Source: Anaerolineales bacterium
Lineage (GTDB): Bacteria > Chloroflexota > Anaerolineae > Anaerolineales > JABWBV01
Direction of reading: 5' to 3'
NCBI GenBank assembly: GCA_035512695.1
Contig: DATKDL010000146.1
Span: forward strand, 3,547 to 67,546
Length of the DNA: 64,000 nt
The notes beneath the pieces were generated by a model, which worked only from the letters and a program-made list of their open reading frames with translations, was not told the origin of the DNA and made no database searches. Of this stretch, positions 5,684 to 56,306 are shown piece after piece (the first letter of the stretch is position 1; each line of letters starts with the position of its first letter). Both the position numbers and the translations under genes were made by a program.

Positions 5684-5689
5684 ATTTTC

Positions 5690-28592: not shown

Positions 28593-29546
28593 TCACCAGC
28601 CTGAGCTGTACCAGACCAGATAATCCCAGGTGTGGCGCTCCCAGTAGGCCGGCTCATGCCGGCCGGTATTCAGATGCCACTGGTGTGGGATATTCAGCTC
28701 GGCGAGCAGGTCGCCGAACCAGGCCGCCTGGTTGAGCAGGTGGTCATCTTCGCCGATATCGATGTAGAACCTTGGGAGCATCTCCGGGGGGATCAGATCC
28801 AGCCAGCCTGGGATCAGGGGCGGATCCGACAGGAACAAAGGCAGGCTGTGCGCCCCGATCGCCGAGAATTCCTGCCAGTGATTCAATCCCAGGTGAACGG
28901 CCCATGAAGCGCCCCTGGATAGGCCGCCGATCGCCCGATGTTCCCGATCCGCGATGGTGCGGTAGTGCAGATCGACCCACGGCAGGATTCGAGACATCAG
29001 CGCTTCTCCGAACGGGTCGCGGATCGGAGCCACGAAGAGGCGGTCTCGGGGCATCAGGATTAAAAATGGGGGCGCCAACCCGGATGCGATCAATTCGTCA
29101 GCGGTTTCGTCGGCGCCAAGGTCGTCCCATTGGGAATCGGTATCGTTGGCGCCGTGGATCAGGATCAGCAGCGGATAGGTGCGTTCCGGATGGCGGTCGT
29201 AGCACGGGGGCGTGTAGACGCGGAAGTCCCAGGGATCCGGGGAGAGATCGGTCGAGAGCGAGTGCCGGGTCACGCGTCCGCCTGCCTGCCAGCAGAGGTC
29301 GGCAGTCGGAACATCGGTGGGGGCGGTGACCGGCGCAAGGGACGGTGGGGTGGTTGCGGTGGGCAGCGGTGTACGGGTCGGTATCCGGGTGGGGGTTTCC
29401 ACCGGGGGACCGGCGGTCGCCGGAAGAGAGGTGGGCGGTGCGACGGGAGCGGGGTAATGGGCAGGTCCGGGCTCAGCCGCCTGGCAACCCGCCAGCAGCA
29501 GACCGGCGATGATCGAGGCGACCGTCAGCGAAAACGTCTTTTCCAT
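28593..29546 (-). CDS. putative esterase (esterase D/enterochelin-esterase-like alpha/beta hydrolase) lipoprotein
   Basis: 317 aa. Lipobox LLLAGC, P/T-rich linker, ILIHGAND, and nucleophile elbow GGLSRGA. Confidence 0.7.
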   Translation of the reverse strand: MEKTFSLTVASIIAGLLLAGCQAAEPGPAHYPAPVAPPTSLPATAGPPVETPTRIPTRTPLPTATTPPSLAPVTAPTDVPTADLCWQAGGRVTRHSLSTDLSPDPWDFRVYTPPCYDRHPERTYPLLILIHGANDTDSQWDDLGADETADELIASGLAPPFLILMPRDRLFVAPIRDPFGEALMSRILPWVDLHYRTIADREHRAIGGLSRGASWAVHLGLNHWQEFSAIGAHSLPLFLSDPPLIPGWLDLIPPEMLPRFYIDIGEDDHLLNQAAWFGDLLAELNIPHQWHLNTGRHEPAYWERHTWDYLVWYSSGW

Positions 29547-30313
29547 TCATCTTTCAACCGCAGGTTGGCGGGCGATTCACCCGATCCGAGCCCGAGAAAA
29601 TCGAGGGCCAGCCTGCTGAAAACCCCGGGCTCGCGCAGCATCGGGTGATGACCGCCTGTCTCGAGCGCGACCTGGTGCAGCAGCGTGGGATCGTCGGGGT
29701 TCGGGTGCGTGAAACTTCCTTCGATCACAGGATCGTTCTCGCAGCGCACCAACAGGCATGCGATCTGCCGGCCGCCGGAGATCTCGGACGGCTCACCGGC
29801 CTCGAGGGCTTCCAGGGAAGCCTTGATCGCCTCCCCCTCCGCTTTTTCGGCCTCACGGCGGTACGGGTCGCTGCCCTGCAAACCGGTGTAGACCCAAAGG
29901 CTCAAATCGGCGGGACCGGCCGTTCTCAACCGAGAATTGATCGTGGCCGGGGCGACCGGTGTGTTCACCAGCATCAGCCGATCGACCGCCTTCGGATGGG
30001 CCAGGGCAAACCGGACCGCCACGACCCCCCCAAGACCGGCCCCGACTAAAGCCACTTTGCGGATTCCGAGCCGGTCGATAAATTCTTCGACGAGCCGGGT
30101 TTGTTCATCCTGACCGTAACGGCCGCGCACCCTGGCCGTGTCCCCGAACCCCCACAGGTCGAGCGCGTAGCAGCGATATCTTGATGAGGCGGGCTGCATG
30201 GTCAGGATCCAATCGCGCCAGGATCCGACCCAGCTGTGTAGAAAGATGACCGGACGGCCGCGGCCGAGGACCTCGTAGTGGACGATCTCGTTCCGCACGA
30301 TCAATGCGCTCAT
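29525..30313 (-). CDS. alpha/beta-hydrolase-fold protein lacking the nucleophile serine (pseudo-hydrolase candidate)
   Basis: 262 aa. Paralog of 39309..40124 (shared I-HYEV-GRG-PVI-LH-W-GSW, YALD-WGFG). The nucleophile elbow reads VGAGLGG where the paralog has VGHSMGG. Confidence 0.7.
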   Translation of the reverse strand: MSALIVRNEIVHYEVLGRGRPVIFLHSWVGSWRDWILTMQPASSRYRCYALDLWGFGDTARVRGRYGQDEQTRLVEEFIDRLGIRKVALVGAGLGGVVAVRFALAHPKAVDRLMLVNTPVAPATINSRLRTAGPADLSLWVYTGLQGSDPYRREAEKAEGEAIKASLEALEAGEPSEISGGRQIACLLVRCENDPVIEGSFTHPNPDDPTLLHQVALETGGHHPMLREPGVFSRLALDFLGLGSGESPANLRLKDEWKRRFR

Positions 30314-30331: not shown

Positions 30332-30703
30332 TCAGCCGGCCTCACCCAGGATCGACCGGATCTTCTCGGCCAACTGTTCCGGGGCGAATGGTTTCAGGAT
30401 GTACTCGGACGCGCCGGCCTCAAGCCCGGTTCGAATTTCCGCTTCCTGTCCCTTCGCCGAAAGAAATACAACGGGGATGTGGGCCAGCTCCGGGTCGGCC
30501 TTGATAATCTCACAGGCCTCGTAGCCGGTCATTTTCGGCATTCGGACATCCAACAGAACCAGGTCGGGCTTTTCCCGGTAGGCGGCCTCCACGGCCTCCG
30601 CTCCGTCGGCAGTTGCAACGACCTCATAACCGGCGTAGCGCAGCGTGAAGGCGATCAGGTCGCGGATATCGCGCTCATCCTCAGCGATCAGTATTTTAGC
30701 CAT
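30332..30703 (-). CDS. single-domain response regulator (REC only)
   Basis: ORF 30332..30802 trimmed to ATG 30703 (MAKILIAEDERD...). Motifs LVLLDVRMPKMTG, FLSAKG, YILKPF. Confidence 0.85.
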   Translation of the reverse strand: MAKILIAEDERDIRDLIAFTLRYAGYEVVATADGAEAVEAAYREKPDLVLLDVRMPKMTGYEACEIIKADPELAHIPVVFLSAKGQEAEIRTGLEAGASEYILKPFAPEQLAEKIRSILGEAG

Positions 30704-30746
30704 AGGCGTTGCAGCAGGTCCTTCAATTCCCGCTCGGCTCCTCCTT

Positions 30747-33700
30747 CTAGGATTTCGGTACGGTGAAATAGAACGTGCTCCCTTCGCCCGGGACCCCGGC
30801 ACTTTCGATCCGGATCGTCCCGCCGTGGAGTTCGACCAGGTAGCGGACGATGGACAGGCCCAGGCCGGTCCCGGCGGTGGATGTCACCAGTGGGGCATCC
30901 CCCCGATAGAACCGGTCGAAAATCTGGGGCTGGTCTTTCGGGGCCACGCCGACGCCGGTGTCGCGGACAACGACTTCGATAAATTCGACGGAGGGGCGGA
31001 ACAGGATCTCGATCTCGCCGTCCGCTTCGGTGTAGTTATAGGCGTTCCCGACCAGGTTGTCGAGGATCTGCCGCAGCCGGGCCGGGTCGGCGTGAGCCGC
31101 GGGCGGCGTCCAATCCGATGAGACCCAGATCCGCATCGGTTTTTTCTCTTCCTGCGACCGCAGCCGGTAGTCGGTGACCACTTCTCCTGCCAGTTCGACA
31201 AGGTCGACAGACCCTCGTTCAAGGAAGACCTTGCCGGCCTCGATGCGGGAGACTTCGAGTAGATCGCTGACCAGGATGTTGAGCCGCTCCGTATTTTCCT
31301 GCACGACCCGAAGAAATTCGTGTTGCTGCGGGTTAACGATGCCGGCCGCGCCCATCAGCAGGATGTCGACATAGCCTTTGATCGAGGTCAATGGGGTCCT
31401 CAGCTCATGCGAAACGGTGGCGACAAATTCCGATTTCATCCTGTCGACTTCGATCAAGTGGGTGATGTCGCGGAAGATCGAGACGGTGCCGAGGAATTCG
31501 TGCGGTAGGGCGACCGGTGCCAGGTTAACGGCGGCGACGCGGACCTCATCCAGGGCGATTTCCTCCGAAAACGAATCGCCGGTTTCGATCGAATTCGGAT
31601 TGGCGGACCAGGCCTGGATCGTATCTAACCACGACCGGCAGGGCGGACCGAGCAGTTCGGAGAAATCATCCAACGACCGCCCAACGACTGCCTTGCTCGC
31701 CAGGTCCAGGATCTGCTCTGCGGCGTGGTTGAACACGGTGACCTGGCCGCGCGAATCGGTGACGATGACACCGTCGACGACCGATTCGAGAATGGCAAGC
31801 AGCCGGCTGGATTCGATCTGCTGGGACCGCAGCATTCCGCCGAGTCTTTCCGCCTGGTCGCGGATCAGCAAGTATAGATGCGCGTTATTAACCGCTACCG
31901 CGACCTGCTTGGATGCAGCCTGGATCAGCTCCAGGTGGTGCTGGGTGAATACCCCGCTTTCCCGGTGGAAGAGCATCAGGGCGCCGAGCGCTTCGGCGCC
32001 CAGCATCAGCGGGATCGCGATGACGCTGCGGTGCTGTGCTTCCCACAGCGGATCCGCCCGCGCATCGTCGATCAAAGCCGGCTCTCGGGTGCGGATAACC
32101 CGGTCCGCCAGGCGCCGGTCGAAATCGTGCGGGAGGGTCTCACCGGTTTCCGGGAGCGTCGCGTCGTGGCCGTACGAAGCCCTACGAACGAGCGATTCAT
32201 CGGCAGGGTTGGCGATGATGAGGGTGCTCTGTTCTGCACCGGTGATGCGGTTGATCAGTGCCAGCGTGCGGTTCAAGACGATGTCCATATCCAGGCTGGC
32301 GGAAAGCTCGGTAATGATCCCGAGCAGGGTCTCGGTTCGCTCGTGTTCGATGGCCAGCTCGTGTGTGCGAGCCTCGACCCGGCGCTCGAGGTCTTCAGCC
32401 AGCTTACGCGACCGATCGAAAAGTTGGGCATTTTGGACGGCGACGGCGACCTGGTTGGCGATCGTCCGAGCCAGGTCAATCTCGCTCGAGCCGAGCCGCT
32501 GGTCGGTATGCAAGATCAACAACCCATGCAGATCATCCCCGGTCACCAGGGAAAGGGCGAGCGCAGCCCCCTGGCCGGACGGCTCCCAGACCTCGGGCAG
32601 CGATGCCAGGCCCGGGTTCGAAGAGAGGTCCTCGACGATCAACACGCCAAGCGATTCTCGCAGCTGCCGGAACGGGAGGTCGTCGAAAGGTTTGGGATAT
32701 GCGCCGTCGCGCGCGGGAGACTGTGCCGCCAGCCAGGCTTGCCCGGCCGGGTCGATCAAGACGGCGCTGACGATCCGGCAGGCGAAGGTCTCACGGATCT
32801 GCCTGGTTGTGAACCGGAGAATGTGCGCGGTATCCAATGAGGAACTGAACTCGCTGGACAACCGGTTGAGCAGATCGAGACGCTGGCTGCGTTCGTCCAG
32901 TTCGGCGGTCCGCTGCTGGCTGTCCTCGAATAGCCGGGCGTTCTCGAGTGCGACCGCGGCCTGGCCGGCGAACGTCGTCGCGATCTGGATATGCTCCGAA
33001 TCGTAAAAGTTCGCCTCGGTTTTTTCCAGTGCAATCACCCCGACCACATCACCCTTGGCGATGAGCGGAATGCCAAGCCACGATAGCCGCTCGAATTCAG
33101 GCAGCGCGGGGAAGCGCGGGTCTGAACGGATATCCGGGACGTGCAGCGCCCGGCCTTGGGCGACCATGTCGCTCAACAGCCGGCTGTCCTCCACCGGAAC
33201 CGAAAGACCGACTCGCTCCTCGTCGTCCTCAAAGCCTTGCGCGGCCCGGACCGTAAGCTGGTCCTCTTTCAAGAACCAGAAAGTACCGGTGTCGAAGGGA
33301 ATGACCTCGGAGAGATGGTCGAGCAGGGAAGCCGAGATACGGTAGACCTGGAGATCGGAGGTGATGGTGGTGGCGACATCGGTCAGCGCGGCGAGTTGGA
33401 CCGCCCGGCGGTTCGCCTCGACGAGCAGCTGTGCATTTTCCAGGATCAGACCGGTTTGCCGGGCGAGTGAACCAACCAGGGCCTCGTCTTCTGCTGTGAA
33501 GGCCTCAGGTTCTGTGAAACTGTCCAGGATCAAGACACCGATGGTCGCCGAACTGGATGGGATCGGCGCGGCAAGACTGGCGATCGGGACCCGGCCCTGG
33601 GTGGCCTCCTGGTATTTCATCAGCTCGTCATAAGGGAGCTTGTAATCGACAGCGATATTGACCTCGCCCACGCGCCGGATCCGGCCATCCGAGAATACCT

Positions 33701-36700
33701 TGCCGGGCAGCGTTTCCCCAGCCGCAAAACGGACTGCCCGCATGGCTTCGTCGTCCCGGTATCCGGAAACAAATGCCGGGACCAGGCAGCTCCGATTTTC
33801 GTCCCACAGCGCCACCAGAACAGCCTGGGTGGTCCTGGCGACCTGCCGCGCGTTCTCCGCCAGCGCGCGGATAATTTCGCCGGTGTCCAGGCTGCCAAGC
33901 CGCCGGCTGAAATCGAGCAGCACGTCGACCTCGCGGAGACGCTCTTCCGTGCGATTGAGGAGTTCCAGGTTCCGCAGCGTTGACGCGATCTGGCGGCCGA
34001 GCAGTCCGAACACCGCCAGGTCGTTCTCCGTGAACTCGGGCTGCGGCTCGGAAAAGATACCCATGAACGCCGCCCGGATCGCCTCACCGGATTCACCGAC
34101 CGGGATGCAGATAAAAGATCCGGCGTTCAGCTGCTCCAACAACGGCGAGGTGCGCCAGGTTTCCACTCCCCCGGCATCCAGGTCCGCCGCCAGGAAAATT
34201 TCTCCTGTGCGGAGGGTCTGGCGCAGCGGGTTGCGCTGACCGAGCAGAACTGCGGGGTTGATGTGAAGGGGGATCTTTCCGGCGGACGACACGAGAACGG
34301 CGCCTTGTTCGGTCGGAATGGCGACGAATCCCAGTTCAAACCCCATTCCGGAAACCAGCTTCGAGCCGATCTGTTCGTAGACGGCTTCAACCGATGTCTG
34401 CTGATTGATCGTGTGGATGAGTTCCAGGGCTGCCCGAACACGCCCGGCGCGGACCTCCATGTCCTTCAGATCGGCGCGCTGGGTTGGTACGCTCTGGTCA
34501 GCCGTTTCAGCTTCCCGGCGCCTGATCCCGGCGATTGCGCTGCCGGCTTGGATCCCCAGCGACCGGCAGCGTTCGATCGCTGCCGGATCAAACCGGTCCG
34601 CGGTTCTTGCATGCAGGTGGATGAGCCCGACCGGCGCTGATTCGAACTCGATCGGCACCAACAGGGCTGAACGGACTTCCGGATGGGGAGGCGCGCCACC
34701 GGCGTCGAAATCGGCCAGGATGTGCGGCTCCCCGCCGGCGATCAGGCTTTGTTCGAGCTTAGAAAGCGTTCCTCCGGATGCCGGATCGTCTCCGGTGAAA
34801 AGGTCGACCTGTAAAATATCCGCCTTCGGATCGAACAGGATAACGGTCCCGCAATCGGCGTGAGCGGCCGTCAGGGCTTCAAGGTAGATACGGTCGAGGG
34901 CGGCGGCCAGGTCATCCGCCGTGTTCAGCTCCCTGCTGATCCGCGTCAGCGTCGTCAGGTCGTCGACGCGCCGCCGGAGCGCCTCGCCGGTGCGATCCTG
35001 GTCGAGGGTCCGTTCGATCGCACCGGCAATCTGACCCGCGGCGGTTGCGGCGATTTCGATTTCGGCGGGCTCAAACAGATTCTCGCCGCCGGTTGCGAAC
35101 AACAGCTCCCCAACCGACCGATCGCGAATGATCAACGGCACGGAAATGACCGATCCGGCCTCGAGCCGCCCGACAACAAGCTTGTACACCATTTCGGTTT
35201 CGAGTTCCGGGGAGTTTCGCCGGAAGATCCGGGCCCGTTGGGATGCGGTGGCGGTGCGGGCGAAAACCGGGTCATCGGTTTTGATTTCCAAGAGACCGGC
35301 GAAGTCTGCTGAGGATGCACCGAACACCGATGGGAGATGGAAAAAGAGCGCGGACTGGTCTTCGTTGAGCAAGAATACGGCGGCCTTCTCCGCGCCGACC
35401 AGCCGGGCGATTTCAGTCAGCGAGTATGTCAGGATCTCATCCAGGGTCGCCACCGAACTGGCCAGCGCGGCAATCCGCCGCAGCGCTTCCGCCTGGCGCG
35501 TCCGCCGGCGGGATTCTTCGAGCAAGCGGGCGTTATCGATGATCGCTGCGCTCTGTCCTGCGACGATGGATAGAAGCCGCAGTTCTTCGGCGCTGTGAGC
35601 CGACCGGTCTGATTTGTTCGCCGCCTGCAGATATCCAAGCGACCGGCCACCGGCAGTTAAAGGGACCAGGACCGAATCCTGCAAGCCGGCTGCCTGGGCG
35701 AGGTGAGCCAGGTCGAGGGCGATCAACTGCGGGTCTTCGGCTGCGTTTTGCGAAAGTACCGGCTGGCCGGAGGCGAATATCGTTTCCGCATCGCTTCCGG
35801 GCTCCAGCGAGGTTGCGTAAAGCCGGGCGAAATCGTCCGGAATGCCGGTGAACGGGAGGGCTGCCTGGAGACGCCGGGAGTTCTCATCGTATATGAGGAA
35901 ACCGAGCACCTCGACATCGAAGAGCGGCAAAATTCCGGCCACCAGTTGGGCGAACAATTCGCCGGTGTCGCGCAGGTTGCCGGCCACCTGCGCCAGGTTC
36001 GCAAGACCGGTCAGTTCCGCGACCCGACGATTCTCATCCTCGCGCGTCAGGGCATGCTGCAGCGCAACGGAAGCCTGGTTGGCAAGCAACTGGAGCGTTT
36101 CGAGGTCCCGATCGGTGTAGACCCGGCCGGTGAGGGAGGCCAGTTCGATGGTACCGATCGGGTCGTCCCCGATCAAGAGGGGTACCCCGAGGTACGACCG
36201 AAAAGGGAATGGCTTTTCGAGGCCTGGGCCGTTGCCGGGTTCCGGCCCATTCGGGTTCAAAAGGATGGCGCTGCGCCCCCGCAGGAGACGGCCGCTCGGG
36301 CCGTCGTCAACCGGATATCGATCGGGCGGGGTCTCGATCCGCCGGCCGATCTCCGGAGGCCCGATCAGCCGGAACGGGATCAGCACGTTCTCGCTGCGGT
36401 TCCAGATCGTGATCTCGGCGATATCCGCCGGAACGACTTGTTCGATGCTTTCCAGGATTGCGGTGACCGTTTTGGTCAGGTCAGGACTGGACGTCATGGC
36501 GAGACTCAACTCGGACAGCACGCGCAGGGCCGGGTGCTCCCCTGATCCGGCGTCCACCAAACCGGTGAGATCTGGCCTGGCCAACGCGACAGCGGTGACG
36601 GTCTGGCCAGGATAAGGGATCCGGAACGAAGCTGCATCCACCAGCAGCCCATTGAGAGAGAGGCGTTTTTGTCCTGGGGTCGAGCAGAGATCGAGCAATG

Positions 36701-36995
36701 ACTCGGATGGCCGGGAACGGCCGGCGACGTATTCCAGGGATGGTACGGCACCTCCCGGCAGATCGAGCCAATTCCGGAGAAGGTCGTTGACAAAAACGAG
36801 CCGGCCGCCCTCTGCGACCAGCAGAACCGCCAGATCGCCACCGGGGTCATCAAGATCGGAGGCGACCTTAAACTGGCCGAGCGGGTTTGTGACGGCTGCC
36901 CGGCGAGTGCGCAGAACGAGCAGCAAACCCCCTGAGAGAAGGAGGCCGAGGCCGATCAGGAGGGCGGCAGCGGCCTCGGGAGTGAGACCCAGCAT
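30747..36995 (-). CDS. giant sensor histidine kinase: N-terminal TM helix, about 9 tandem GAF domains, PAS, HisKA, HATPase_c
   Basis: 2082 aa. The recurring GAF core motif (S-h-h-h-h-P-h...G-h-h) appears at least 9 times. PAS segment LLAILESVVDGVIVTD. H-box FVATVSHELRTPLTSI. G-boxes DTGVGV and GTGLGLSIV. Confidence 0.85.
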   Translation of the reverse strand: MLGLTPEAAAALLIGLGLLLSGGLLLVLRTRRAAVTNPLGQFKVASDLDDPGGDLAVLLVAEGGRLVFVNDLLRNWLDLPGGAVPSLEYVAGRSRPSESLLDLCSTPGQKRLSLNGLLVDAASFRIPYPGQTVTAVALARPDLTGLVDAGSGEHPALRVLSELSLAMTSSPDLTKTVTAILESIEQVVPADIAEITIWNRSENVLIPFRLIGPPEIGRRIETPPDRYPVDDGPSGRLLRGRSAILLNPNGPEPGNGPGLEKPFPFRSYLGVPLLIGDDPIGTIELASLTGRVYTDRDLETLQLLANQASVALQHALTREDENRRVAELTGLANLAQVAGNLRDTGELFAQLVAGILPLFDVEVLGFLIYDENSRRLQAALPFTGIPDDFARLYATSLEPGSDAETIFASGQPVLSQNAAEDPQLIALDLAHLAQAAGLQDSVLVPLTAGGRSLGYLQAANKSDRSAHSAEELRLLSIVAGQSAAIIDNARLLEESRRRTRQAEALRRIAALASSVATLDEILTYSLTEIARLVGAEKAAVFLLNEDQSALFFHLPSVFGASSADFAGLLEIKTDDPVFARTATASQRARIFRRNSPELETEMVYKLVVGRLEAGSVISVPLIIRDRSVGELLFATGGENLFEPAEIEIAATAAGQIAGAIERTLDQDRTGEALRRRVDDLTTLTRISRELNTADDLAAALDRIYLEALTAAHADCGTVILFDPKADILQVDLFTGDDPASGGTLSKLEQSLIAGGEPHILADFDAGGAPPHPEVRSALLVPIEFESAPVGLIHLHARTADRFDPAAIERCRSLGIQAGSAIAGIRRREAETADQSVPTQRADLKDMEVRAGRVRAALELIHTINQQTSVEAVYEQIGSKLVSGMGFELGFVAIPTEQGAVLVSSAGKIPLHINPAVLLGQRNPLRQTLRTGEIFLAADLDAGGVETWRTSPLLEQLNAGSFICIPVGESGEAIRAAFMGIFSEPQPEFTENDLAVFGLLGRQIASTLRNLELLNRTEERLREVDVLLDFSRRLGSLDTGEIIRALAENARQVARTTQAVLVALWDENRSCLVPAFVSGYRDDEAMRAVRFAAGETLPGKVFSDGRIRRVGEVNIAVDYKLPYDELMKYQEATQGRVPIASLAAPIPSSSATIGVLILDSFTEPEAFTAEDEALVGSLARQTGLILENAQLLVEANRRAVQLAALTDVATTITSDLQVYRISASLLDHLSEVIPFDTGTFWFLKEDQLTVRAAQGFEDDEERVGLSVPVEDSRLLSDMVAQGRALHVPDIRSDPRFPALPEFERLSWLGIPLIAKGDVVGVIALEKTEANFYDSEHIQIATTFAGQAAVALENARLFEDSQQRTAELDERSQRLDLLNRLSSEFSSSLDTAHILRFTTRQIRETFACRIVSAVLIDPAGQAWLAAQSPARDGAYPKPFDDLPFRQLRESLGVLIVEDLSSNPGLASLPEVWEPSGQGAALALSLVTGDDLHGLLILHTDQRLGSSEIDLARTIANQVAVAVQNAQLFDRSRKLAEDLERRVEARTHELAIEHERTETLLGIITELSASLDMDIVLNRTLALINRITGAEQSTLIIANPADESLVRRASYGHDATLPETGETLPHDFDRRLADRVIRTREPALIDDARADPLWEAQHRSVIAIPLMLGAEALGALMLFHRESGVFTQHHLELIQAASKQVAVAVNNAHLYLLIRDQAERLGGMLRSQQIESSRLLAILESVVDGVIVTDSRGQVTVFNHAAEQILDLASKAVVGRSLDDFSELLGPPCRSWLDTIQAWSANPNSIETGDSFSEEIALDEVRVAAVNLAPVALPHEFLGTVSIFRDITHLIEVDRMKSEFVATVSHELRTPLTSIKGYVDILLMGAAGIVNPQQHEFLRVVQENTERLNILVSDLLEVSRIEAGKVFLERGSVDLVELAGEVVTDYRLRSQEEKKPMRIWVSSDWTPPAAHADPARLRQILDNLVGNAYNYTEADGEIEILFRPSVEFIEVVVRDTGVGVAPKDQPQIFDRFYRGDAPLVTSTAGTGLGLSIVRYLVELHGGTIRIESAGVPGEGSTFYFTVPKS

Positions 36996-37005: not shown

Positions 37006-37905
37006 TCAGCCGTCTCCCTGCCGGTTGAGGCGGCGTGCTTCCGCAGCCAGTTCGGTGATTTCCCGGATATCCGCGAATTCGTGATCGGCTGGGCTCACGC
37101 TGCCGATTCTGATCGACATCAAGGCGACACGCTCTTCACCGCCCTGTCCACTCCCGGTGGAGATGTACCCTTGCTCGCGGTCGATAAAGCTGTAATGGGT
37201 CAGCACCTGCTCGGCGAACCGCTCTCGGATCAGGTCCCGGAGAGCCGCGGCGTCCGCGTGCCTGGTGATGACGATGAAATTGTCGCCGCCGGGGTGACCG
37301 ATGAAATCCTCCTGCGTACCCGCCTCGTCGATGACTTCGCCGATCAACATGGCCGTGAACCGCAGGACGTCATCGCCGGCCACAAAGCCGTACACCTCCT
37401 TGAAGGGCTCGAAATGCTCGATCCGCAGGTCCATCAATGTCCAGCCATCGTTCCCGATCATGCGGCGGAGCTGGTCTTCGATCAGGCGTCCGGAAGGGAG
37501 CCCGGATCGCGGGTCGGTGAGACTTTCGCGGGCAGCGCGGGCGATCGCGTTCTGGACGCGCAGCTTGAGCTCCTCGATGTCGAAAGGCTTGGTAATGTAA
37601 TCGTCCGCGCCGAGTTCCAGGCCCTGCAGCTTGTCGCTGCGTTCGTCTCGCTGGGTCAGAAAGATGATCGGAATATGGCTTGTGCGGGTCTGGGTCCGCA
37701 GGATCCGGCAAACTTCATACCCGTCGATGCCCGGCAGCATGATGTCCAGGACGATCAGGTGCGGCAGACCGGCGCGTGTTTTCTCCAGCGCTTCGGGACC
37801 ACCGAGCGCCGTGTCGACATCGTAGCCCTGGCCCCTGAAATAGATGTCGAGCATGTTCGAAATGTCGGCGTCGTCTTCGACGATTAAGATGCGGGATTTT
37901 CCCAT
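37006..37905 (-). CDS. response regulator with degenerate GGDEF domain (GGDNF)
   Basis: 299 aa. SD GGGAGG. REC motifs (ILIVEDD, LIVLDIMLPGIDG, YITKPF). GGDEF-fold region LTDPRSGLP...FIGHPGGDNFIVI. Confidence 0.8.
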   Translation of the reverse strand: MGKSRILIVEDDADISNMLDIYFRGQGYDVDTALGGPEALEKTRAGLPHLIVLDIMLPGIDGYEVCRILRTQTRTSHIPIIFLTQRDERSDKLQGLELGADDYITKPFDIEELKLRVQNAIARAARESLTDPRSGLPSGRLIEDQLRRMIGNDGWTLMDLRIEHFEPFKEVYGFVAGDDVLRFTAMLIGEVIDEAGTQEDFIGHPGGDNFIVITRHADAAALRDLIRERFAEQVLTHYSFIDREQGYISTGSGQGGEERVALMSIRIGSVSPADHEFADIREITELAAEARRLNRQGDG

Positions 37906-38028: not shown

Positions 38029-39306
38029 TCACCAGGTCTCGGGGGCGTCCTTCCCCGGGGGAGGATATCGCCGGTTGTGCAATTTTCCCAGTGCGAGCCG
38101 GTGATGGTCGCTGTCTTTGTAGCGGATATCGGTTTCGACGATTCTGCGTTCGTTCGAACCGATCAGGACGACATCGGATTCGATCGTCCGGGCGGGCATG
38201 ATGACGAGGCCGGAGCCGAGTCTGCAGTTGTGGCCGACGCAGCCGCCAAGGACGGAGCGGCCGGAAGGGGAGAGCCGGTCACCCCCGTCCAGCGCGCGCA
38301 ATGGTTTGGGGATCAGGTTGAAATCGGTGAACGTCGTCCCCGCACCGATAAAGGTGTTCCGCCCAATGACGCACATCTGCAGGCACGTGTTCTGGGCGAC
38401 CATGCTGTTTTCCATCAGGGTGGTCATGAACAGGGCTGCGCGGAAAGGCAGGAAGCTGCCGTCGCCGATCACAGAGAGCATCACCTGGCAGCCCTGCGAG
38501 ATGTTGACATCGCTGCCGATGATTGCGTTTTCGATGACAACCCCGGCGCCGATCGTGACGTTGTCCCCAATCGTGGTCGGCCCGTGGATGACGGCAGTCG
38601 GATCGATCTGGCAGCCGCGCCCGATCCGGACCAGGCGGCTGGTTTCCAGGACTTGCTTCCCCTCCAGCATGCCGCGGAACAGGACGCCCAACTTGAGGAA
38701 AGGCTCCCGGGCGATGCGGTGCTCGAACCGCGCCCCGCGTGCGAAAACTCCGAAGACGACATCGGCGATAAAGATATGGACCCAGGAATCGATCGCCAGG
38801 AGTCCCTGCAGCGGGACCTGGAAAATCAATTCCCCTTTTTCGCTGGCCATGTAGCTCGGGATGCGGTAGTAGCCGATCTCGGTGGTCCGGGTATCGACGA
38901 TGACCGGGTCGGTTTCGGCCGTTGGGCCTTCCGGGTAATACCACAGATCGGCAAGGTAGAGTTCGCCGGTGTGGGTGAAAGAGGTGGAAAGCGGCAGGAC
39001 GTGCTCGCGAAAAGTGGCGTTTTCGATCGTAAAGGCCGCCCGGCAGGGCCGGCCGCGACGGACCGCTTCATCGAGGAATGCGGCGATGTAAGCCTCATCG
39101 AAGTAAAGGTTGTCGCGGTAGACGATGCAGGCACTGCGGGTTGCGGGGAGCGTCTCGTCCACGCCGAGTTCCAATTCGCGCGTGATATACGAGGCCAACG
39201 CATCGCGCTGGATAAGCCAGAGGGGTTTGTTCTGGATCCTCAGGTCGCGGGCGCGCTCGTTGAACGGCCTGACGACGCGGTCGGAGTTGAGGACGATCTT
39301 CAGCAT
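38029..39306 (-). CDS. left-handed beta-helix (hexapeptide-repeat) protein with degenerate nucleotidyltransferase-like N-terminal domain
   Basis: 425 aa. Multiple hexapeptide turns (IGDNVTIGAGVVIENAIIGSDVNISQGCQV..., VGHNCRLGSGLVI). The N-terminal about 220 aa lacks a G-rich NTP loop. Confidence 0.6.
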   Translation of the reverse strand: MLKIVLNSDRVVRPFNERARDLRIQNKPLWLIQRDALASYITRELELGVDETLPATRSACIVYRDNLYFDEAYIAAFLDEAVRRGRPCRAAFTIENATFREHVLPLSTSFTHTGELYLADLWYYPEGPTAETDPVIVDTRTTEIGYYRIPSYMASEKGELIFQVPLQGLLAIDSWVHIFIADVVFGVFARGARFEHRIAREPFLKLGVLFRGMLEGKQVLETSRLVRIGRGCQIDPTAVIHGPTTIGDNVTIGAGVVIENAIIGSDVNISQGCQVMLSVIGDGSFLPFRAALFMTTLMENSMVAQNTCLQMCVIGRNTFIGAGTTFTDFNLIPKPLRALDGGDRLSPSGRSVLGGCVGHNCRLGSGLVIMPARTIESDVVLIGSNERRIVETDIRYKDSDHHRLALGKLHNRRYPPPGKDAPETW

Positions 39307-39308
39307 GA

Positions 39309-40124
39309 CTACCTGCGGGTCGCTTCGCCGTTCGGGCCGCCGTCCGAGCGCAGGAATTCACGCAGGGTATGCTGGAATCGCTCGGCCTGGTCGAGCATCG
39401 GGAAATGACCGGCGTTTTTGAAGCGTTCAATGCGGGGGTGCCGGGCGTGCTCCTGGATCGGCTTCCATTGGTTCGGGTTGACCAACACATCCAGGGCCCC
39501 ATAGATCCCCATGATCGGGACGTCGATGGATTCGATCTCGTCCGTCAGGTTCGTTCGCCGGAGCGACGCGATACTGGTGAGAAAAGACTCAACCGTGGTC
39601 TTTGAGAGATCCTTGTCGATCATTCCGTACCAGCGGCGGTCGCGGGTCACGATCGGCGCCCCGATCCGGATCCCCAGTTTGAGCGCCCACATCGTGTTGT
39701 GGACCAGGCGCGCGATCGGGCGGTAGCCGGCCAGCTTGAGCAGGAACAGGAGCGATCGGCCGTCGATCGGCGAGCCGATCACGGTCACATTCCTGGCGCG
39801 GTGCGGGTGTTTGCGGGCCAGGGCGAGGCTCACGGTGCCGCCCATGCTGTGCCCGACGATCGGCGCCGAAGCGATCCCGAGGGACTCCATAAACTCGTCC
39901 ACCAAACCCACGAAATCTTCGATCTCATATGAGTTCAACTTCTTGCCGGATTCTCCGAACCCCCAGAAATCGAGGGCGTAGGTGCGGAACTCGTCGCCGA
40001 GGAAGGCCATCGTCTCCTGCCAGAGACCCCAGGAGCCCAGCCAGCCGTGCAGCAAAATGACCGGCTTGCCGCGACCGAAGACTTCGTAATGGATGATGCC
40101 CTTTTGCGTGGTGAGGCAGGACAC
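39309..40124 (-). CDS. alpha/beta hydrolase (intact Ser-Asp-His candidates)
   Basis: 271 aa. GHSMGG nucleophile elbow; GALDVLV and AGHFPML as Asp/His candidates. Confidence 0.75.
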   Translation of the reverse strand: MSCLTTQKGIIHYEVFGRGKPVILLHGWLGSWGLWQETMAFLGDEFRTYALDFWGFGESGKKLNSYEIEDFVGLVDEFMESLGIASAPIVGHSMGGTVSLALARKHPHRARNVTVIGSPIDGRSLLFLLKLAGYRPIARLVHNTMWALKLGIRIGAPIVTRDRRWYGMIDKDLSKTTVESFLTSIASLRRTNLTDEIESIDVPIMGIYGALDVLVNPNQWKPIQEHARHPRIERFKNAGHFPMLDQAERFQHTLREFLRSDGGPNGEATRR

Positions 40125-40130
40125 GGTACC

Positions 40131-40661
40131 CTAGGTTTCCATTCCCGCCAAAATGGAATACAGCAGCTCAAGCAGGACAGTTTTGACCGATTCTTTATCC
40201 ACAGCGACGCATGGGAGCAGTTTGATCCCCTCTTCGAGACGCAAAGCGATGCGCATATCATCGAGCGCCCACGCGTCTTCCTGGTCTTGCTTGTTGGCGG
40301 CTACGACGTAAGGCGTGGGTGCATAAGCTCGAAAAGTCTCCAGAATGCTGCGGGCCTCGCGGAAAGTTTCGGGCCGCGAACTGTCGATCATGACGATAAA
40401 GCCCAACATGCCTTCCGAGAGGATCTCCCACATGAAATCGAACCGTTTCTGCCCAGGCGTGCCGAAAAGATACAGTACCAGGCTCTCATCGACCGTGATG
40501 CGGCCGAAGTCCATCGCGACCGTCGTCGATTCCTTGATGCGTTCGGCTTCCGAAGTGATTTTCTTCTCAGTCGAGACGACGTCGATCTCGCTGACAGTCT
40601 GGATGAATTCGGTTTTGCCGGCGCTGAATGGTCCGGTGACGACCATTTTGACGGTTTCCAT
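40131..40661 (-). CDS. small Ras-like GTPase of the MglA/CvnD (conservon ATP/GTP-binding protein) type
   Basis: 176 aa. P-loop GPFSAGKT, switch II LFGTPGQKRF, NKQD box. Confidence 0.8.
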   Translation of the reverse strand: METVKMVVTGPFSAGKTEFIQTVSEIDVVSTEKKITSEAERIKESTTVAMDFGRITVDESLVLYLFGTPGQKRFDFMWEILSEGMLGFIVMIDSSRPETFREARSILETFRAYAPTPYVVAANKQDQEDAWALDDMRIALRLEEGIKLLPCVAVDKESVKTVLLELLYSILAGMET

Positions 40662-41479
40662 TAGAGCGATCGGATCCTCCCGATGATGCGATTGATCAAC
40701 GATTTCTGTTCGTCTTGCGATGCGTTTGCGTACGCCCCGGTCGGCTTGAGCGGATGCGGGGCATTTTCAGGGCGGACCAGGTCCACCAGGCCGGCCTGGA
40801 GCAGACCGTACACGATCCGCCGGATCTCGATGTCGTTCATTTGGGTCGCGCGTGAAATCTGGCGGATCGAATTCTTGGGGTTGATGTACGAAACGACCTT
40901 CCACTCCTGGATGCTGAGATTCACCTTGCTCAGGTTGGTTCCGGGCCGATCGGTGAAACGCAAGGCCATATCGAGGTTTGGGATTTCGTCCTGAAGCTGT
41001 TCCCATTCCCGCAGACGCCGGGAGCCTTCGATGATGATGTTCTCCAGGTCGATGCGGGTCGTGATCCTGTCATCCGGTGGAAGGGCGTCGTTTTGGAACT
41101 GGAAAAACCCTTCCACCCATGTGAACAAACGGTTGACGACGGCGACAAAGTGGTTCCGCAGGGTCTGGACGACTTCCTCGCGAGTGAGGTAGCCGGCGTT
41201 GATCAACAGCAGACCCAGTTCCTTGTCCCCCATGTTGGCCGCGCGAGTTTTAAGGGTACGGTACTGCGCCAGTGAGAAACGGTTGGCCTTGTAGAGGAGC
41301 GTCGCCAGGCTGTTGTCCTCCTGGCGCATCTCGGCGAAGGCCAGTTTCCCATCACGAAAGCTGACAAGGGCAGTCTCGTTGGCCCCTTCCACCACGAGGG
41401 TGCCGGTCTTTTTGGCGAGATTGATCAGGTTGAGGAGCTGCGTGATGGTGAAGTCACGCAAATTTCCTTTGAGTGCCAT
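40661..41479 (-). CDS. DUF4388 (PATAN) domain protein with C-terminal DUF742/CvnC-like winged-helix region
   Basis: 272 aa. N-terminus MALKGNLRDFTITQLLNLINLAKKTGTLVV is typical of DUF4388. C-terminus reads LSIQEWKVVSYINPKNSIRQISRATQMNDIEIRRIVYGLLQAGLVDLV. The stop overlaps the GTPase ATG by 1 nt. Confidence 0.7.
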   Translation of the reverse strand: MALKGNLRDFTITQLLNLINLAKKTGTLVVEGANETALVSFRDGKLAFAEMRQEDNSLATLLYKANRFSLAQYRTLKTRAANMGDKELGLLLINAGYLTREEVVQTLRNHFVAVVNRLFTWVEGFFQFQNDALPPDDRITTRIDLENIIIEGSRRLREWEQLQDEIPNLDMALRFTDRPGTNLSKVNLSIQEWKVVSYINPKNSIRQISRATQMNDIEIRRIVYGLLQAGLVDLVRPENAPHPLKPTGAYANASQDEQKSLINRIIGRIRSL

Positions 41480-41532
41480 GCTGAGGGATTATACAATTAT
41501 TCTAAGAACCTATCTGCAAATTGGGGCGGCGG

Positions 41533-41573
41533 TTTTCGGGCCGGCTGCGGTTCTGCCGCAGCCGGCCCGAAAA
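41533..41573 (-). terminator. hairpin, 18-bp perfect stem
   Basis: TTTTCGGGCCGGCTGCGG / TTCTG / CCGCAGCCGGCCCGAAAA, downstream of the 41604 stop. TATAAT (41493..41488, minus) then lies 8 nt before ATG 41479. Confidence 0.75.
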
Positions 41574-41603
41574 CACCCGTTCACCGAATTTTTGGATCGG
41601 GTA

Positions 41604-42137
41604 TTACTTCAACGGGCAAAGCCCCGATCCTTGCACGAAAGCCGTCACATTCGGCATCGCACCGTAGTGCAGCGATCCGCCGGTGCCAAATCCATTGGAG
41701 CGGCCAAAGATCGCATTGACATTGGAATGTCTTCCTACGAGCGGGATGACGATTGAATCGAGATTGGAGAAGAAAGTGTAGAACGAGTGGATCCGGACCT
41801 TGTTGGTGTAAATGACCTCCAGCACGACGACGTCCGGATTGGTCCGGTAGTATTCATAGGTCGAATCCGACATTGTGAGCGGATCGAAGTTCTTGCGGGT
41901 CGAGAGCGTTTCGTTCAGGATTGTGACCAGGGCGTCGAAGTGCGGATCCTCGGGGCGCAGGGTCGTCACGCTGCCATAGCAGTACAGATCGATCCCCTCG
42001 GGATACTCATCAAAATTCGAAGTGAACCAGAGTGGATCCTGCGTACTCATTGCGATGATCGCATACACCAGGGTCGCGACGAGGACCAAGGCCGTGATCG
42101 CGAGGTTAATCAAGGAAGGTGGTCTGCTCTTGTCCAT
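41604..42137 (-). CDS. single-pass membrane protein, paralog B (unknown family)
   Basis: 177 aa with an N-terminal TM helix. Shares MST(Q/E)DPLWF, LTMSDxTYxYY, VIPLxGRHSNxNAxFG and a C-terminal GLC with 42275..42805. Confidence 0.65.
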   Translation of the reverse strand: MDKSRPPSLINLAITALVLVATLVYAIIAMSTQDPLWFTSNFDEYPEGIDLYCYGSVTTLRPEDPHFDALVTILNETLSTRKNFDPLTMSDSTYEYYRTNPDVVVLEVIYTNKVRIHSFYTFFSNLDSIVIPLVGRHSNVNAIFGRSNGFGTGGSLHYGAMPNVTAFVQGSGLCPLK

Positions 42138-42274: not shown

Positions 42275-42805
42275 TCAGCCGGAACAGAGGCCGTTGGCCG
42301 TGATGTAGTCCAGCATCGAAGCGGTTGATTCGATGTGCAGCGCGCCCGCCGTTGCCTGGCCGTCGATCAGCCCAAACACGGCATTGAGATTGGAATGCCG
42401 GCCTAACAGGGGGATCACGAGCGCCTCAACCCCCGAGAAATATTTGTAGATCGAGTGCACCCGAACCGGCCGGTTGTACCGGATCTCCAACGCGACGACC
42501 GCATCACTTTCTTGATAGTAGCGATAGGTATCGTCCGACATTGTCAGAGAATCCCAGTTTTTCCTGCCGGACAGGGCCTGGTTTACAAATCCGTTCAAGG
42601 CTTCAAGATGGGGAGAATTCTGCCCGATCGGCTCCCGGCTGCCCCGGCAGTAGATGGTGGCTTCCGCCGCAGCTTCGGAAAATGTCGGGATGAACCACAG
42701 CGGGTCTTCCGTGCTCATGGAGATGATCCCGTAACCCGCTGCAACGACGAATACGACGACTGTACCCAGCAGCCCCATCAGCGAGGGCTGGTTCTGCTCG
42801 TACAT
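42275..42805 (-). CDS. single-pass membrane protein, paralog A (unknown family)
   Basis: ORF 42275..42853 trimmed to ATG 42805 (MYEQNQPSLMGLLG...) after SD AAGGAGG. Confidence 0.65.
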   Translation of the reverse strand: MYEQNQPSLMGLLGTVVVFVVAAGYGIISMSTEDPLWFIPTFSEAAAEATIYCRGSREPIGQNSPHLEALNGFVNQALSGRKNWDSLTMSDDTYRYYQESDAVVALEIRYNRPVRVHSIYKYFSGVEALVIPLLGRHSNLNAVFGLIDGQATAGALHIESTASMLDYITANGLCSG

Positions 42806-42919
42806 AACGACCTCCTTGTGTATGGATCCTCGTGTTCTCCAACTCCGCTTCACTTTCCGGGAACACTGCAGGTGGCCTAAGCCTGCAGGAAAGTGAAATG
42901 AATGTTGAATATTTATTGA

Positions 42920-42991: not shown

Positions 42992-44470
42992 TCATTGCCC
43001 GGAAACGACCCGGCTTTCCAAATTCGAGCACTCGCACGCCCGGATGATCTGGTTGCCGCGTACGAGCAGCCCCAGGTACGCGGTTGCGCCGTCCTGGGCA
43101 ACCCAGCCTTCCAGGTTGAAGGGGAGTACACCGGAACCGGCGAGGATCCATTCCCCGTTGTATTTGCGGGCGATGTGGATGTGCGTGCCGGTCGATGTGC
43201 CGCCTTCGCAGGAGGGATGGCCGACCGGATCCCCGCGCTGAAGATGATCCCCGACGCGGACGCGGTCCTCGGTTGCAATATGCAGAAAAAAGATCGCCCA
43301 GCCGGTGCGCTCGTCGCCATCGAGGTCCAGATCGAGCACGGCGATCCCGGGCTGCGAACGGACGATCAACCCCTCCGCCGGGGCGGTGACCCAATCGCTC
43401 GACTCGAAACAGCCCTGGGTCGTGCTCGGCGGAGCGAAATCCAGCCCGGCAAACGGGGCGCCCTTTCCCCATCCGGTGTGGGGTCCGCCTGTGTAGGTCC
43501 AGGGTTTACGCGGTTCGAAAGGCAGGAAAAGCTCGGGCTGCGTCAGGCTGCCGGGGATATGCGGCTCATCCGACTCCCAGGGGTCGCCGAAATATGCCTG
43601 GTACACGGCGGCCAGGCCATCGGGGCCGATCGCCCGGTGATATGGATCCGGTAGGTGCAGCCGGGAGAAATAGTGCTGCAGTGAAACGGTCGCGGCGTTC
43701 TGCCATGGGTCCGGTCGTTCGAGCGCTCCTCCGATCAAATCGAAGGAGAGCAGCTTGCCGATCCGCCAGCTATAGTAGCCGTTGTTCAGGAGGTTGGCTG
43801 CCCAGACGAGCTGTAGATAAAGCCCCTGGTTGGATGTACCGCGATATCCGAGCAGGTCCGAGTCCACGTTTACAGGCGGTACCGGATCGCTCAGCGCCCG
43901 GGTTTGATACTCGAGCAGGGCCAGGAGCAGCCGCGGGTCGACGCTGAAATTGATCGCCACCTGGTCGACGATTTCGCCGCCGAAACGGTTTTGTCCCCCG
44001 ATGAAAGCGACCTGCCCTTTCAGCCAACCCGGCTGCTGCAGGACGAATGTCCCGGTGTCGAACCTGCTGGCGGACGGCCCGTTGACGAACCGCCAATCCG
44101 GCAGGATCCGATAGGGTGAGCCCCACAGCGGCAGATAATAGATCGGGATCTGCATCGGCATTCCCGGGGGCATCGTGGTCGCATCGAGCGGGATGACCGG
44201 GTTCGCTTCCCGGATCTCGGCGACCGAGGTGTTGAACCGGGCTGCCAGCGCATCCAAAGTGTCTCCGGGTTGGGCGGTATATTCGACCAGTTCCCCCGGG
44301 GCATAGCGCGGCCGGGTCGGGAATGGAGAAGGCTCCGGAAACGGGGTCGTCGTCTCGGTCGGCGCCGGCTCAGGTGATTCTTCGTCCGGAGCCGGCATTT
44401 CCGCGGCAGGTGTGCAGCCGCCGATAAGGACGGCTGCCAGCCAAATATACAGCGATAATCTTCTATTCAT
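42992..44470 (-). CDS. LysM domain + M23-family peptidase-like lipoprotein, tandem paralog 4 of 4 (transcription order)
   Basis: 492 aa. Lipobox LIGGC, LysM YTAQPGDTLDALAARFNTSVAEIREANP, C-terminal GHPSCEGGTSTGTHIHIARKYNGEW. Confidence 0.8.
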   Translation of the reverse strand: MNRRLSLYIWLAAVLIGGCTPAAEMPAPDEESPEPAPTETTTPFPEPSPFPTRPRYAPGELVEYTAQPGDTLDALAARFNTSVAEIREANPVIPLDATTMPPGMPMQIPIYYLPLWGSPYRILPDWRFVNGPSASRFDTGTFVLQQPGWLKGQVAFIGGQNRFGGEIVDQVAINFSVDPRLLLALLEYQTRALSDPVPPVNVDSDLLGYRGTSNQGLYLQLVWAANLLNNGYYSWRIGKLLSFDLIGGALERPDPWQNAATVSLQHYFSRLHLPDPYHRAIGPDGLAAVYQAYFGDPWESDEPHIPGSLTQPELFLPFEPRKPWTYTGGPHTGWGKGAPFAGLDFAPPSTTQGCFESSDWVTAPAEGLIVRSQPGIAVLDLDLDGDERTGWAIFFLHIATEDRVRVGDHLQRGDPVGHPSCEGGTSTGTHIHIARKYNGEWILAGSGVLPFNLEGWVAQDGATAYLGLLVRGNQIIRACECSNLESRVVSGQ

Positions 44471-54957: not shown

Positions 54958-54967
54958 TGAAATCCGG

Positions 54968-55960: not shown

Positions 55961-55979
55961 TCAACCTCCGTTGTTGTCA

Positions 55980-56046
55980 GGAAAAATTGGAAATCGAGCG
56001 CCCTGCCCGGCTCCACCGGGCAGGGCGCTCGATTTCCAATTTTTCC
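55980..56046. repeat. perfect 31-bp-stem inverted repeat between divergent plsX and tRNA-Leu
   Basis: Arms 55980..56010 and 56016..56046 are exact reverse complements (GGAAAAATTGGAAATCGAGCGCCCTGCCCGG / CTCCA / complement). Confidence 0.9.
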
Positions 56047-56086
56047 AACTCACGACCTTTCAGTTCTCCCAGTCCGCTGTCCCATG

Positions 56087-56114
56087 TTGACAACAGCCTT
56101 ACCAAGATTATAAT
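56087..56114 (+). promoter_or_regulatory. consensus sigma70 promoter TTGACA-16 nt-TATAAT for tRNA-Leu
   Basis: TTGACA at 56087..56092 and TATAAT at 56109..56114. The tRNA 5' end lies 11 nt downstream. Confidence 0.65.
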
Positions 56115-56125
56115 ACGCATCCCCT

Positions 56126-56211: not shown

Positions 56212-56221
56212 GGTGAAATGA

Positions 56222-56272: not shown

Positions 56273-56293
56273 CCTCGCTCCCGGCTTAAGCGT

Positions 56294-56299: not shown

Positions 56300-56306
56300 A
56301 AACGAG

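Follow-up and report, generated by a model that had tools for sequence, protein, structure and literature searches.

The 64-kb stretch of DNA analysed here (the window) comes from a metagenome-assembled genome (MAG) of an Anaerolineales bacterium of the Chloroflexota, has a G+C content of 63% and carries four closely packed minus-strand genes that encode a protein joining a PATAN (DUF4388) domain to a winged helix, a small Ras-like GTPase of the MglA family, an alpha/beta hydrolase and a two-domain protein with a nucleotidyltransferase (NT)-like N-terminal half and a left-handed beta-helix C-terminal half (hereafter the beta-helix protein). These genes very probably belong to a conserved MglA-family GTPase/PATAN cluster that is coupled to a two-component system encoded downstream of them. 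The explanation that we tentatively prefer, while holding it at somewhat less than even confidence, includes the proposal that the locus forms the central part of an Anaerolineae-specific cluster that is inherited vertically and built around the GTPase and an obligate PATAN-winged-helix partner.

Conservation of the cluster was followed by scanning one genome per species with the beta-helix protein, and relatives of its gene were found in at least 592 species genomes. The best 80 loci were annotated, and the ratios that follow are calculated over the loci with enough flanking DNA. All 80 belong to Anaerolineae, among them Ornatilinea apprima and Thermanaerothrix solaris, both in culture, and a MAG attributed to Anaerolinea thermophila. 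The PATAN, GTPase and hydrolase genes lie in this order immediately upstream of the beta-helix gene in 59 of 63 loci, and as this order is shared by so many loci it is far beyond chance; a first-pass annotation of the window, which had described a tight four-gene operon, is thus borne out on synteny. A regulator gene with REC and GGDEF-like domains follows downstream, after the beta-helix gene or after a reductase-like gene (65/69 loci). When all open reading frames (ORFs) of 82 loci were clustered without supervision, only two further conserved neighbours emerged, namely a GAF protein of about 2300 aa, which follows the regulator in 52 of the loci, and a second hydrolase; the flanks beyond are variable. 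Divergent lineages keep the order even where the PATAN protein has 40–45% and the beta-helix protein 44–56% identity to the reference.

Most relatives carry a larger form of the cluster. A V4R gene is inserted between the hydrolase and beta-helix genes (44 of 63 loci) and a gene similar to acyl-ACP (acyl carrier protein) reductases follows the beta-helix gene (42 of 69), its product matching the acyl-ACP reductase 6jzq (E 1e-24) and PigE's N-terminal domain (2e-33). V4R/TRAPPC3 folds bind palmitate or phenols (PMC10933270). The four-gene form of the window, with neither V4R nor reductase, is found in 7 of 56 complete loci and is stable in the closest relatives; tblastn detected no V4R, acyl-ACP-reductase-like or GT2 gene in the window. 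The window therefore carries a reduced version of the larger cluster, one of several variants. This larger form, the published linkage between PATAN and MglA genes and the loss of the catalytic histidine in the beta-helix protein described below had all been overlooked in the first-pass annotation.

The GTPase family, the PATAN domain and an occasional linkage of the two are already known, the linkage having been published earlier (PMC4316618; Makarova 2006 as cited there). Not found in the searchable literature are the PATAN-winged-helix protein as a strict partner of the GTPase, the class-wide linkage of both to a hydrolase, an NT-like/beta-helix protein, a REC-GGDNF regulator and a kinase with nine GAF domains, or the variable additions of V4R, reductase and Roadblock genes. 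The only trace of the cluster in that literature is an appendix gene table of Anaerolinea thermolimosa, which shows the same order without comment (PMC8756737); none of the papers found treats the cluster as a system, and the first-pass annotation had likewise not recognised the architecture as a described one.

The operon itself is exactly as first reported: by the ORF coordinates, the start codon of the GTPase gene overlaps the stop codon of the PATAN gene by 1 nt and gaps of 6 nt and 2 nt follow at the next two junctions. The third codon position of the four ORFs has a G+C fraction of 0.69–0.85 compared with 0.37–0.44 at the second, as expected for real genes in DNA of 63% G+C. The PATAN and GTPase genes are always adjacent, and the pair is often translationally coupled, as it is in the window.

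The GTPase carries the motifs G1 (GPFSAGKT), G2 (TT at residues 46–47, within ESTTVAMDFG), G3 (GTPGQ) and G4 (NKQD, residues 123–126). The P-loop, the G2 threonine with a threonine and not an arginine before it, the GTPGQ box and the switch regions are invariant in 92 homologues. In Pfam it matches ATP_bind_1 (PF03029, 3e-18) together with Ras and Arf, whereas neither Era nor translation factors are among its matches; its relatives in the PDB are Arf, Rab and MglA, and 30 residues separate the end of the P-loop from the G2 threonine, as in bacterial MglA. Groups 2–5 of the MglA family share the P-loop GxxxxGK[ST], the GTPGQ box and a threonine instead of an arginine before the G2 threonine; group 5 has a canonical G4 box ([NT]KxD) from which groups 2 and 3 deviate, group 4 is found in methanogens, and group 5 takes in Chloroflexi and ‘occasionally’ adjoins PATAN genes (Wuichet & Sogaard-Andersen, 2014; PMC4316618). 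Since the protein of the window has no intrinsic arginine finger (TT, not RT), its motifs assign it to groups 2–5, and since its G4 box is canonical it appears, by its motifs, to be of the group 5 type. By the published signatures (TT, GTPGQ and the 30-residue G1–G2 spacing; PMC4316618), the first-pass assignment to the MglA/CvnD type, as opposed to Era or translation GTPases, was correct. The GTPase is 76–96% identical over all cluster-bearing loci compared with 40–85% for its neighbours, a pattern compatible with a hub to which several partners bind. Lipidation of the eukaryotic kind was also considered for the GTPase and dropped, as the translation has no Gly2 and no C-terminal CaaX.

Compared with the MglA/MglB switch of Myxococcus xanthus and Thermus thermophilus, the GTPase shows the same single-domain Ras-like fold with the bacterial G1–G2 insertion, the catalytic glutamine after G3, a canonical NKxD box and a link to REC proteins (RomR in the known system). 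MglA, however, has the intrinsic arginine finger (RT) and TVPGQ where the window protein has TT and GTPGQ, and the cluster differs further in having no Roadblock gene within four genes, an obligate PATAN-winged-helix neighbour and a tight linkage to enzymes and a GAF kinase. Group 3 MglA systems of beta- and gamma-proteobacteria include an adjoining protein with a receiver-like alpha/beta N-terminal domain and a C-terminal winged helix, which recalls the PATAN-winged-helix protein by architecture, but they are equipped with one or two MglB genes and their G4 box deviates (PMC4316618).

The upstream partner of the GTPase matches PATAN (PF14332) with an E value of 2.7e-25 (89.2 bits against a cutoff of 25) and has 6575 full-length homologues, the best 120 listed at 67–100% identity. 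In its AlphaFold2 (AF2) model, helices at residues 58–118 break up an alpha/beta core that is rich in beta strands. This insertion has a profile match (E 0.18) to the repeat at the N-terminus of PilF/PilB, which are pilus ATPases; the alpha-clip insertion of PATAN domains is described as homologous to the PilB N1 repeat, and PATAN as a protein–protein output domain whose genes are often near MglA/MglB homologues (bioRxiv 10.1101/2021.06.11.447907). Residues 185–236 are modelled as three helices and one strand, with a MarR match of E 0.097 and with RPC39 and Npr2/3 matched through their winged helices in Foldseek (prob 0.99–1.0); the C-terminal 108 residues give weak Pfam matches to TFIIE_alpha and HTH_9 (E about 0.02) and no match to DUF742/CvnC even at E <= 10. 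Thus, of the first-pass description of this protein as a DUF4388/PATAN domain fused to a CvnC-like winged helix, the PATAN domain and the winged helix stand and the CvnC relationship does not. The conserved basic amphipathic helix formed by the last 17 residues looks like a putative membrane-targeting tail; it resembles the membrane-targeting tails of FtsA and MinD. PatA, PixE, PixG and SgnC share the PATAN domain with its alpha-clip insertion, but proteins of the PatA type carry a REC partner domain whereas the protein studied here has the winged helix and the amphipathic tail at its C-terminus and lies near neither chemotaxis nor pilus genes.

NPRL2 and NPRL3 (Npr2/Npr3), subunits of the GATOR1/SEACIT complexes, are regulators of Rag GTPases built of a longin domain and a winged helix. 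They are the top PDB matches of the whole PATAN-winged-helix model in Foldseek (E about 1e-2, TM score about 0.25, prob 0.66–0.89), and they have in common with it an alpha/beta N-terminal domain followed by a winged helix and a small-GTPase partner. On the other hand, the two have no sequence similarity and it is the winged helix alone that superposes well (73 columns, root-mean-square deviation 2.2), so the relation is one of resemblance and not of membership.

The third gene encodes a hydrolase with a match to Abhydrolase_1 (E 1e-27, 97.8 bits), a conserved HGWLGSW oxyanion motif and PDB relatives among esterases, arylesterases and enol-lactonases. The serine of GHSMGG and the aspartate and histidine of the triad are each kept in at least 95% of 100 homologues; the enzyme is therefore predicted to be catalytically intact, in line with what had been claimed for it.

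The beta-helix protein belongs to a tiny family (158 clusters at 50% identity among 1.84 billion proteins). Its Hexapep/left-handed beta-helix match covers residues 224–325 (E 6e-17), the best domain-specific Pfam match of this half being LbH_EIF2B, below the cutoff, and its invariant motifs are PFNE, ARDLR and NKPL in the N-terminal domain and AQNTCLQMC, GHNCR and SDHH in the C-terminal domain. The N-terminal 225 residues have no Pfam or PDB sequence match, nor do those of even the most distant family members, and a profile search of PDB sequences returned noise only (transketolase and cyanide dihydratase, E > 0.2). Neither an NTP_transferase Pfam match nor the G-x-G-[TS]-R loop is found at the N-terminus, which reads MLKIVLNSDRVVRPFNERARDL; the absence of the loop had been noted in the first pass. 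The top Foldseek matches are mostly nucleotidyltransferases such as RmlA, IspD, KdsB and CobY (prob 0.9–0.99, E 0.03–0.1), with a few beta-helix pectate lyases among them, and as the model is poor (pLDDT 52) they give no more than a hint of the fold.

The beta-helix half is co-linear with that of Sulfolobus ST0452 (5z09), although the alignment reaches an E value of only 0.003. His308 of ST0452, which we take to be the catalytic histidine of its acetyltransferase, is replaced by the invariant Gln305 and Tyr311 by Cys308; the glutamine, within AQNTCLQMC, thus stands in place of the catalytic histidine of the GlmU/ST0452-type motif H-[LF]-[ST]-Y-x-G-D. GlmU, ST0452, GMPPA/B and eIF2B gamma/epsilon are likened to the protein by their two-domain order and length and, for ST0452, by the co-linear beta-helix, and they differ from it in that the GxGTR loop is missing here, glutamine takes the place of the histidine and the invariant motifs are its own. 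Both halves look like those of a diverged, possibly non-catalytic GlmU-type enzyme. The most distant paralogues of the protein (30–34% identity; loci L090, 2447–13672, and L091, 1461–5178) adjoin no GTPase gene and have as neighbours three B12-binding radical-SAM enzymes, a short-chain dehydrogenase/ketoreductase, a squalene-hopene-cyclase-like protein and an aldehyde ferredoxin oxidoreductase.

Downstream of the four genes lie those of the two-component system. The regulator combines a REC domain, whose phospho-acceptor aspartate is conserved among homologues, with a GGDEF domain whose motif reads GGDNF in at least 70% of 91 homologues and which has no RxxD inhibitory site; this domain is predicted to be degenerate and not a diguanylate cyclase of the GG[DE]EF type. 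The large kinase that follows is cytoplasmic, and its HATPase_c domain runs up to residue 2081 of 2082, an LPxR extension at the C-terminus being absent. Behind it are a stand-alone REC protein, the ORF of which overlaps the end of the kinase gene so that its true start is probably further downstream than the listed one, and another alpha/beta hydrolase, paralogous to that of the operon, which keeps its relative position after the kinase in about 20 loci.

A Roadblock (MglB) gene lies within four genes of 390 of 449 MglA family members (PMC4316618). In the window no Robl_LC7 domain was found by Pfam in the cluster genes and all small genes, larger genes being listed only at E <= 1e-5 and the genes at 1382–2191, 3027–4340, 4412–5590 and 5690–7708 not being scanned, and a tblastn search that took a related cluster's Roadblock protein as its query detected nothing in the 64 kb. 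Since the window scans found no Robl_LC7, the GTPase is an ‘orphan’ in the sense of PMC4316618, and the absence of a Roadblock partner among the genes scanned, as first annotated, holds. The cluster can nevertheless associate with a Roadblock gene, though usually not at the locus, because a marine clade (L005–L008, L033, L035, L063 and L077) carries a block of Roadblock, V4R, REC(GGDEF-like) and GT2 glycosyltransferase genes just upstream of the PATAN gene (L005, 4162–6939), with the Roadblock gene five genes upstream in this clade only. Together with the GTPase, this block brings Roadblock and V4R (TRAPPC3-fold) genes side by side in bacteria. A homology between the PATAN core and Roadblock was also tried and rejected (hhalign probability 0.05), the profiles being thin and the negative weak.

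In our overall picture, to which we would give a little less than an even chance, a GTPase switch is coupled both to a two-component system and to enzymes of an acyl/envelope type. The cytoplasmic GAF/PAS kinase would sense small-molecule cues and phosphorylate the REC proteins, which together with the PATAN-winged-helix protein would set the nucleotide state or the location of the GTPase. This step is proposed by analogy with Myxococcus, in which the REC protein RomR with RomX is said to act as the exchange factor for MglA, and because PATAN is a documented protein-binding output domain. The GTP-bound GTPase would then recruit or activate the hydrolase and the beta-helix protein and, in most relatives, may also act on the V4R protein, as a binder of hydrophobic ligands, and on the acyl-thioester reductase; the role of the enzymes would be to produce or remodel an envelope compound of an acyl/lipid type at particular places along the filament. 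Such chemistry is suggested by the genes for the reductase and V4R in the relatives and by the presence of distant beta-helix paralogues among biosynthetic genes. A Roadblock (MglB) regulator would be encoded elsewhere in the genome or be functionally replaced.

Several observations weigh against this picture. A gap of 123 nt with a weak hairpin separates the beta-helix gene from the regulator gene, so that the regulator and kinase genes are only presumed to be transcribed together with the four genes, and the confidence of the AF2 models is moderate for the PATAN-winged-helix protein (pLDDT 73) and poor for the beta-helix protein. A Roadblock gene is present within 10 kb in only 4 of 80 species loci, and the window has no such gene near the operon. 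Moreover, since the beta-helix protein has neither the loop that binds nucleotides nor the catalytic histidine of the GlmU/ST0452 type, it may not be an enzyme at all.

The first-pass annotation had labelled the operon conservon-like and had suggested the giant GAF kinase as its kinase-like component. In such a system the kinase, an adaptor made of PATAN (as a Roadblock surrogate) and winged helix (as CvnC) and a CvnD-like GTPase would form a membrane complex resembling a G-protein-coupled receptor, with the GTPase as the output and the enzymes as passengers. As in the Streptomyces conservon, a group 2–5 GTPase is accompanied by a sensor kinase, here a conserved neighbour, and by a small helix-turn-helix-like protein; the TT and GTPGQ signatures are common to CvnD (PMC4316618), and the alpha/beta domain and winged helix of the adaptor, with its weak NPRL2/NPRL3 matches, would suit the role. 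However, CvnA is a HAMP protein of the membrane that resembles histidine kinases, carries an LPxR extension at its C-terminus and has no cognate response regulator, and CvnD is a group 2 GTPase with NxFD at G4 and DAR at G5 (PMC4316618), whereas the kinase of the window is soluble, has nine GAF domains and a PAS domain, ends without LPxR and is flanked by two REC proteins, and its GTPase has the canonical NKQD. Neither CvnB (Roadblock) nor CvnC (DUF742) has a match at the locus, the comparison of PATAN with Roadblock was null, and the hydrolase and beta-helix genes, additional to a conservon and found here in Chloroflexota and not in Actinobacteria, are kept in position as much as the signalling genes. 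The kinase was thus rightly seen as part of the unit (52 loci) although it is not of the CvnA type, the conservon label itself fails at CvnA, CvnB, CvnC and the G4 box of CvnD, and a conservon-type system is considered unlikely.

Equally improbable is a polarity or type IV pilus module, in which the GTPase and the PATAN protein would position or gate the PilB/PilC motor and the enzymes would be unrelated. MglA of Myxococcus reportedly sorts pilus ATPases, and the insertion of the PATAN domain has the PilF/PilB match mentioned above. PATAN domains bind the N-terminal domain of PilB1 and PilC in Synechocystis (bioRxiv 10.1101/2021.06.11.447907). But no pil genes are found among the scanned genes of the window (four at 1382–7708 were not scanned) or among the conserved neighbours in 82 loci, and the linked genes encode enzymes and a two-component system instead; cultured Anaerolineae have, to our knowledge, been described as non-motile filaments. 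A biosynthetic or lipid-remodelling operon, in which the hydrolase, an acyltransferase-like beta-helix protein, the reductase and a V4R carrier would do the chemistry, the GTPase and PATAN protein would serve as assembly factors or chaperones and the two-component system would regulate transcription, is judged rather unlikely. Its enzyme genes are as syntenic as the GTPase gene, the reductase-like gene falls in the family of acyl-ACP reductases and the distant beta-helix paralogues occur in biosynthetic clusters with no GTPase; however, a Ras-type switch that is MglA-like and not a G3E metallochaperone, a beta-helix protein without canonical catalytic residues and reductase and V4R genes that are dispensable in many lineages, that of the window included, are hard to square with a plain biosynthetic operon, and the output of the regulator is a degenerate GGDEF domain and not a DNA-binding one. 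A defence function was rejected, since PADLOC gave no match for the four proteins and only generic REC similarity for the regulator, and also because the conservation is vertical and class-wide.

A further reading, to which we give a still smaller chance, is that the PATAN-winged-helix protein, the beta-helix protein or both could be disguised GTPase-activating proteins or exchange factors of the GTPase, joined by V4R in most relatives and by Roadblock in some. It is suggested by the resemblance of the former to NPRL2/3 and by the architecture that the latter shares with the pseudo-enzymes eIF2B gamma/epsilon and GMPPA. If true, the cluster would be a bacterial, operon-encoded counterpart of the TRAPP, GATOR and eIF2B complexes, the assembly of which had been placed in archaea and eukaryotes.

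Good knowledge of Ras-like GTPases is confined to a few bacteria, namely to the motility polarity switch of Myxococcus and the conservon of Streptomyces. Here a near-invariant GTPase is found across a class of abundant, mostly uncultured filamentous bacteria, in an operon with an adaptor, enzyme-like proteins and a kinase. This raises the questions of what role a small GTPase plays in filaments with no described motility, how ‘orphan’ MglA-type GTPases are switched on and off without MglB, and whether the folds of eukaryotic GTPase regulators (V4R/TRAPP, Roadblock, NT plus beta-helix pseudo-enzymes and longin/winged-helix) already work together with GTPases in bacteria. As Anaerolinea, Ornatilinea apprima and Thermanaerothrix solaris are cultured carriers of the cluster, these questions are testable.

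Table 1. Positions in the 64-kb window of the cluster genes, their domains and the associated sequence elements.
Feature	Position	Strand	Evidence
PATAN + winged-helix protein, 272 aa	40661..41479	-	Pfam, AF2 model, 6575 homologues
PATAN core, residues 4-160	41000-41470	-	Pfam PF14332
Alpha-clip helical insertion, residues ~58-118	41126-41308	-	AF2 secondary structure
Winged helix, residues ~185-236	40772-40927	-	AF2 model, Foldseek, weak profile matches
Conserved basic amphipathic C-terminal helix, residues 255-271, EQKSLINRIIGRIRSL	40667-40717	-	Homologue conservation map
MglA-family Ras-like small GTPase, 176 aa	40131..40661	-	Translation motifs, Pfam
Alpha/beta-fold serine hydrolase, 271 aa, GTG start	39309..40124	-	Pfam, conserved triad
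NT-like + left-handed beta-helix protein, 425 aa	38029..39306	-	Hexapep, Foldseek, ST0452 alignment
N-terminal domain, NT-like, residues 1-215	38662-39306	-	Foldseek on low-confidence model
C-terminal domain, left-handed beta-helix, residues 224-385	38152-38637	-	Hexapep
Response regulator, 299 aa: REC (acidic pocket, Asp54) + degenerate GGDEF (predicted)	37006..37905	-	Pfam, motif conservation
Cytoplasmic histidine kinase, 2082 aa: 9 GAF, PAS, HisKA, HATPase_c	30747..36995	-	Pfam
Stand-alone REC response regulator	30332..30802	-	Response_reg 1e-30, residues 37-149; tblastn 30347-30700
Second alpha/beta hydrolase, paralogue of operon hydrolase (29% identity)	29525..30313	-	tblastn, Pfam
Perfect 19-bp GC-rich hairpin, no U tract, between upstream gene (stop 41604) and operon	41532..41574	-	Sequence reading
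TATAAT box, 9 nt before PATAN ATG, no Shine-Dalgarno	41488..41493	-	Sequence reading

At its 5' side the operon appears to be bounded by the GC-rich hairpin of Table 1, a predicted terminator-like or regulatory structure. A leaderless transcript of the PATAN gene is possible, because the TATAAT box is so close to the ATG and no Shine-Dalgarno sequence is present; no full sigma-70 promoter was called near the box on the minus strand by a consensus scan.

The hairpin is preceded by genes for two proteins of 177 aa (41604–42137, minus strand) and 192 aa (42275–42853, minus strand) with no Pfam match, the first with an apparent N-terminal transmembrane helix; L136 and L137, the closest relatives, have a 177-aa protein in the corresponding place. 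Upstream of these, four consecutive large paralogous genes (42992–49130, minus strand), three of them with LysM and/or Peptidase_M23 domains typical of cell-wall remodelling, form a run directly upstream of the cluster that is kept in the same two relatives and not class-wide. About 12–17 kb from the operon (53695–58532) are genes for a FabF-like ketoacyl synthase, PlsX, an SCP2 sterol-carrier-like protein and an aldehyde ferredoxin oxidoreductase, for which no conserved linkage to the cluster was seen. Elsewhere in the window, an unusual fusion of REC with a ParA/MinD-type ATPase (615 aa) is encoded at 12285–14132 on the plus strand. Downstream of the cluster, a protein with an N_BRCA1_IG Ig-like domain is encoded at 27697–28554 (minus strand), and in another locus (L002, 2171–4381) the same domain is fused to an M23 peptidase adjoining the cluster.

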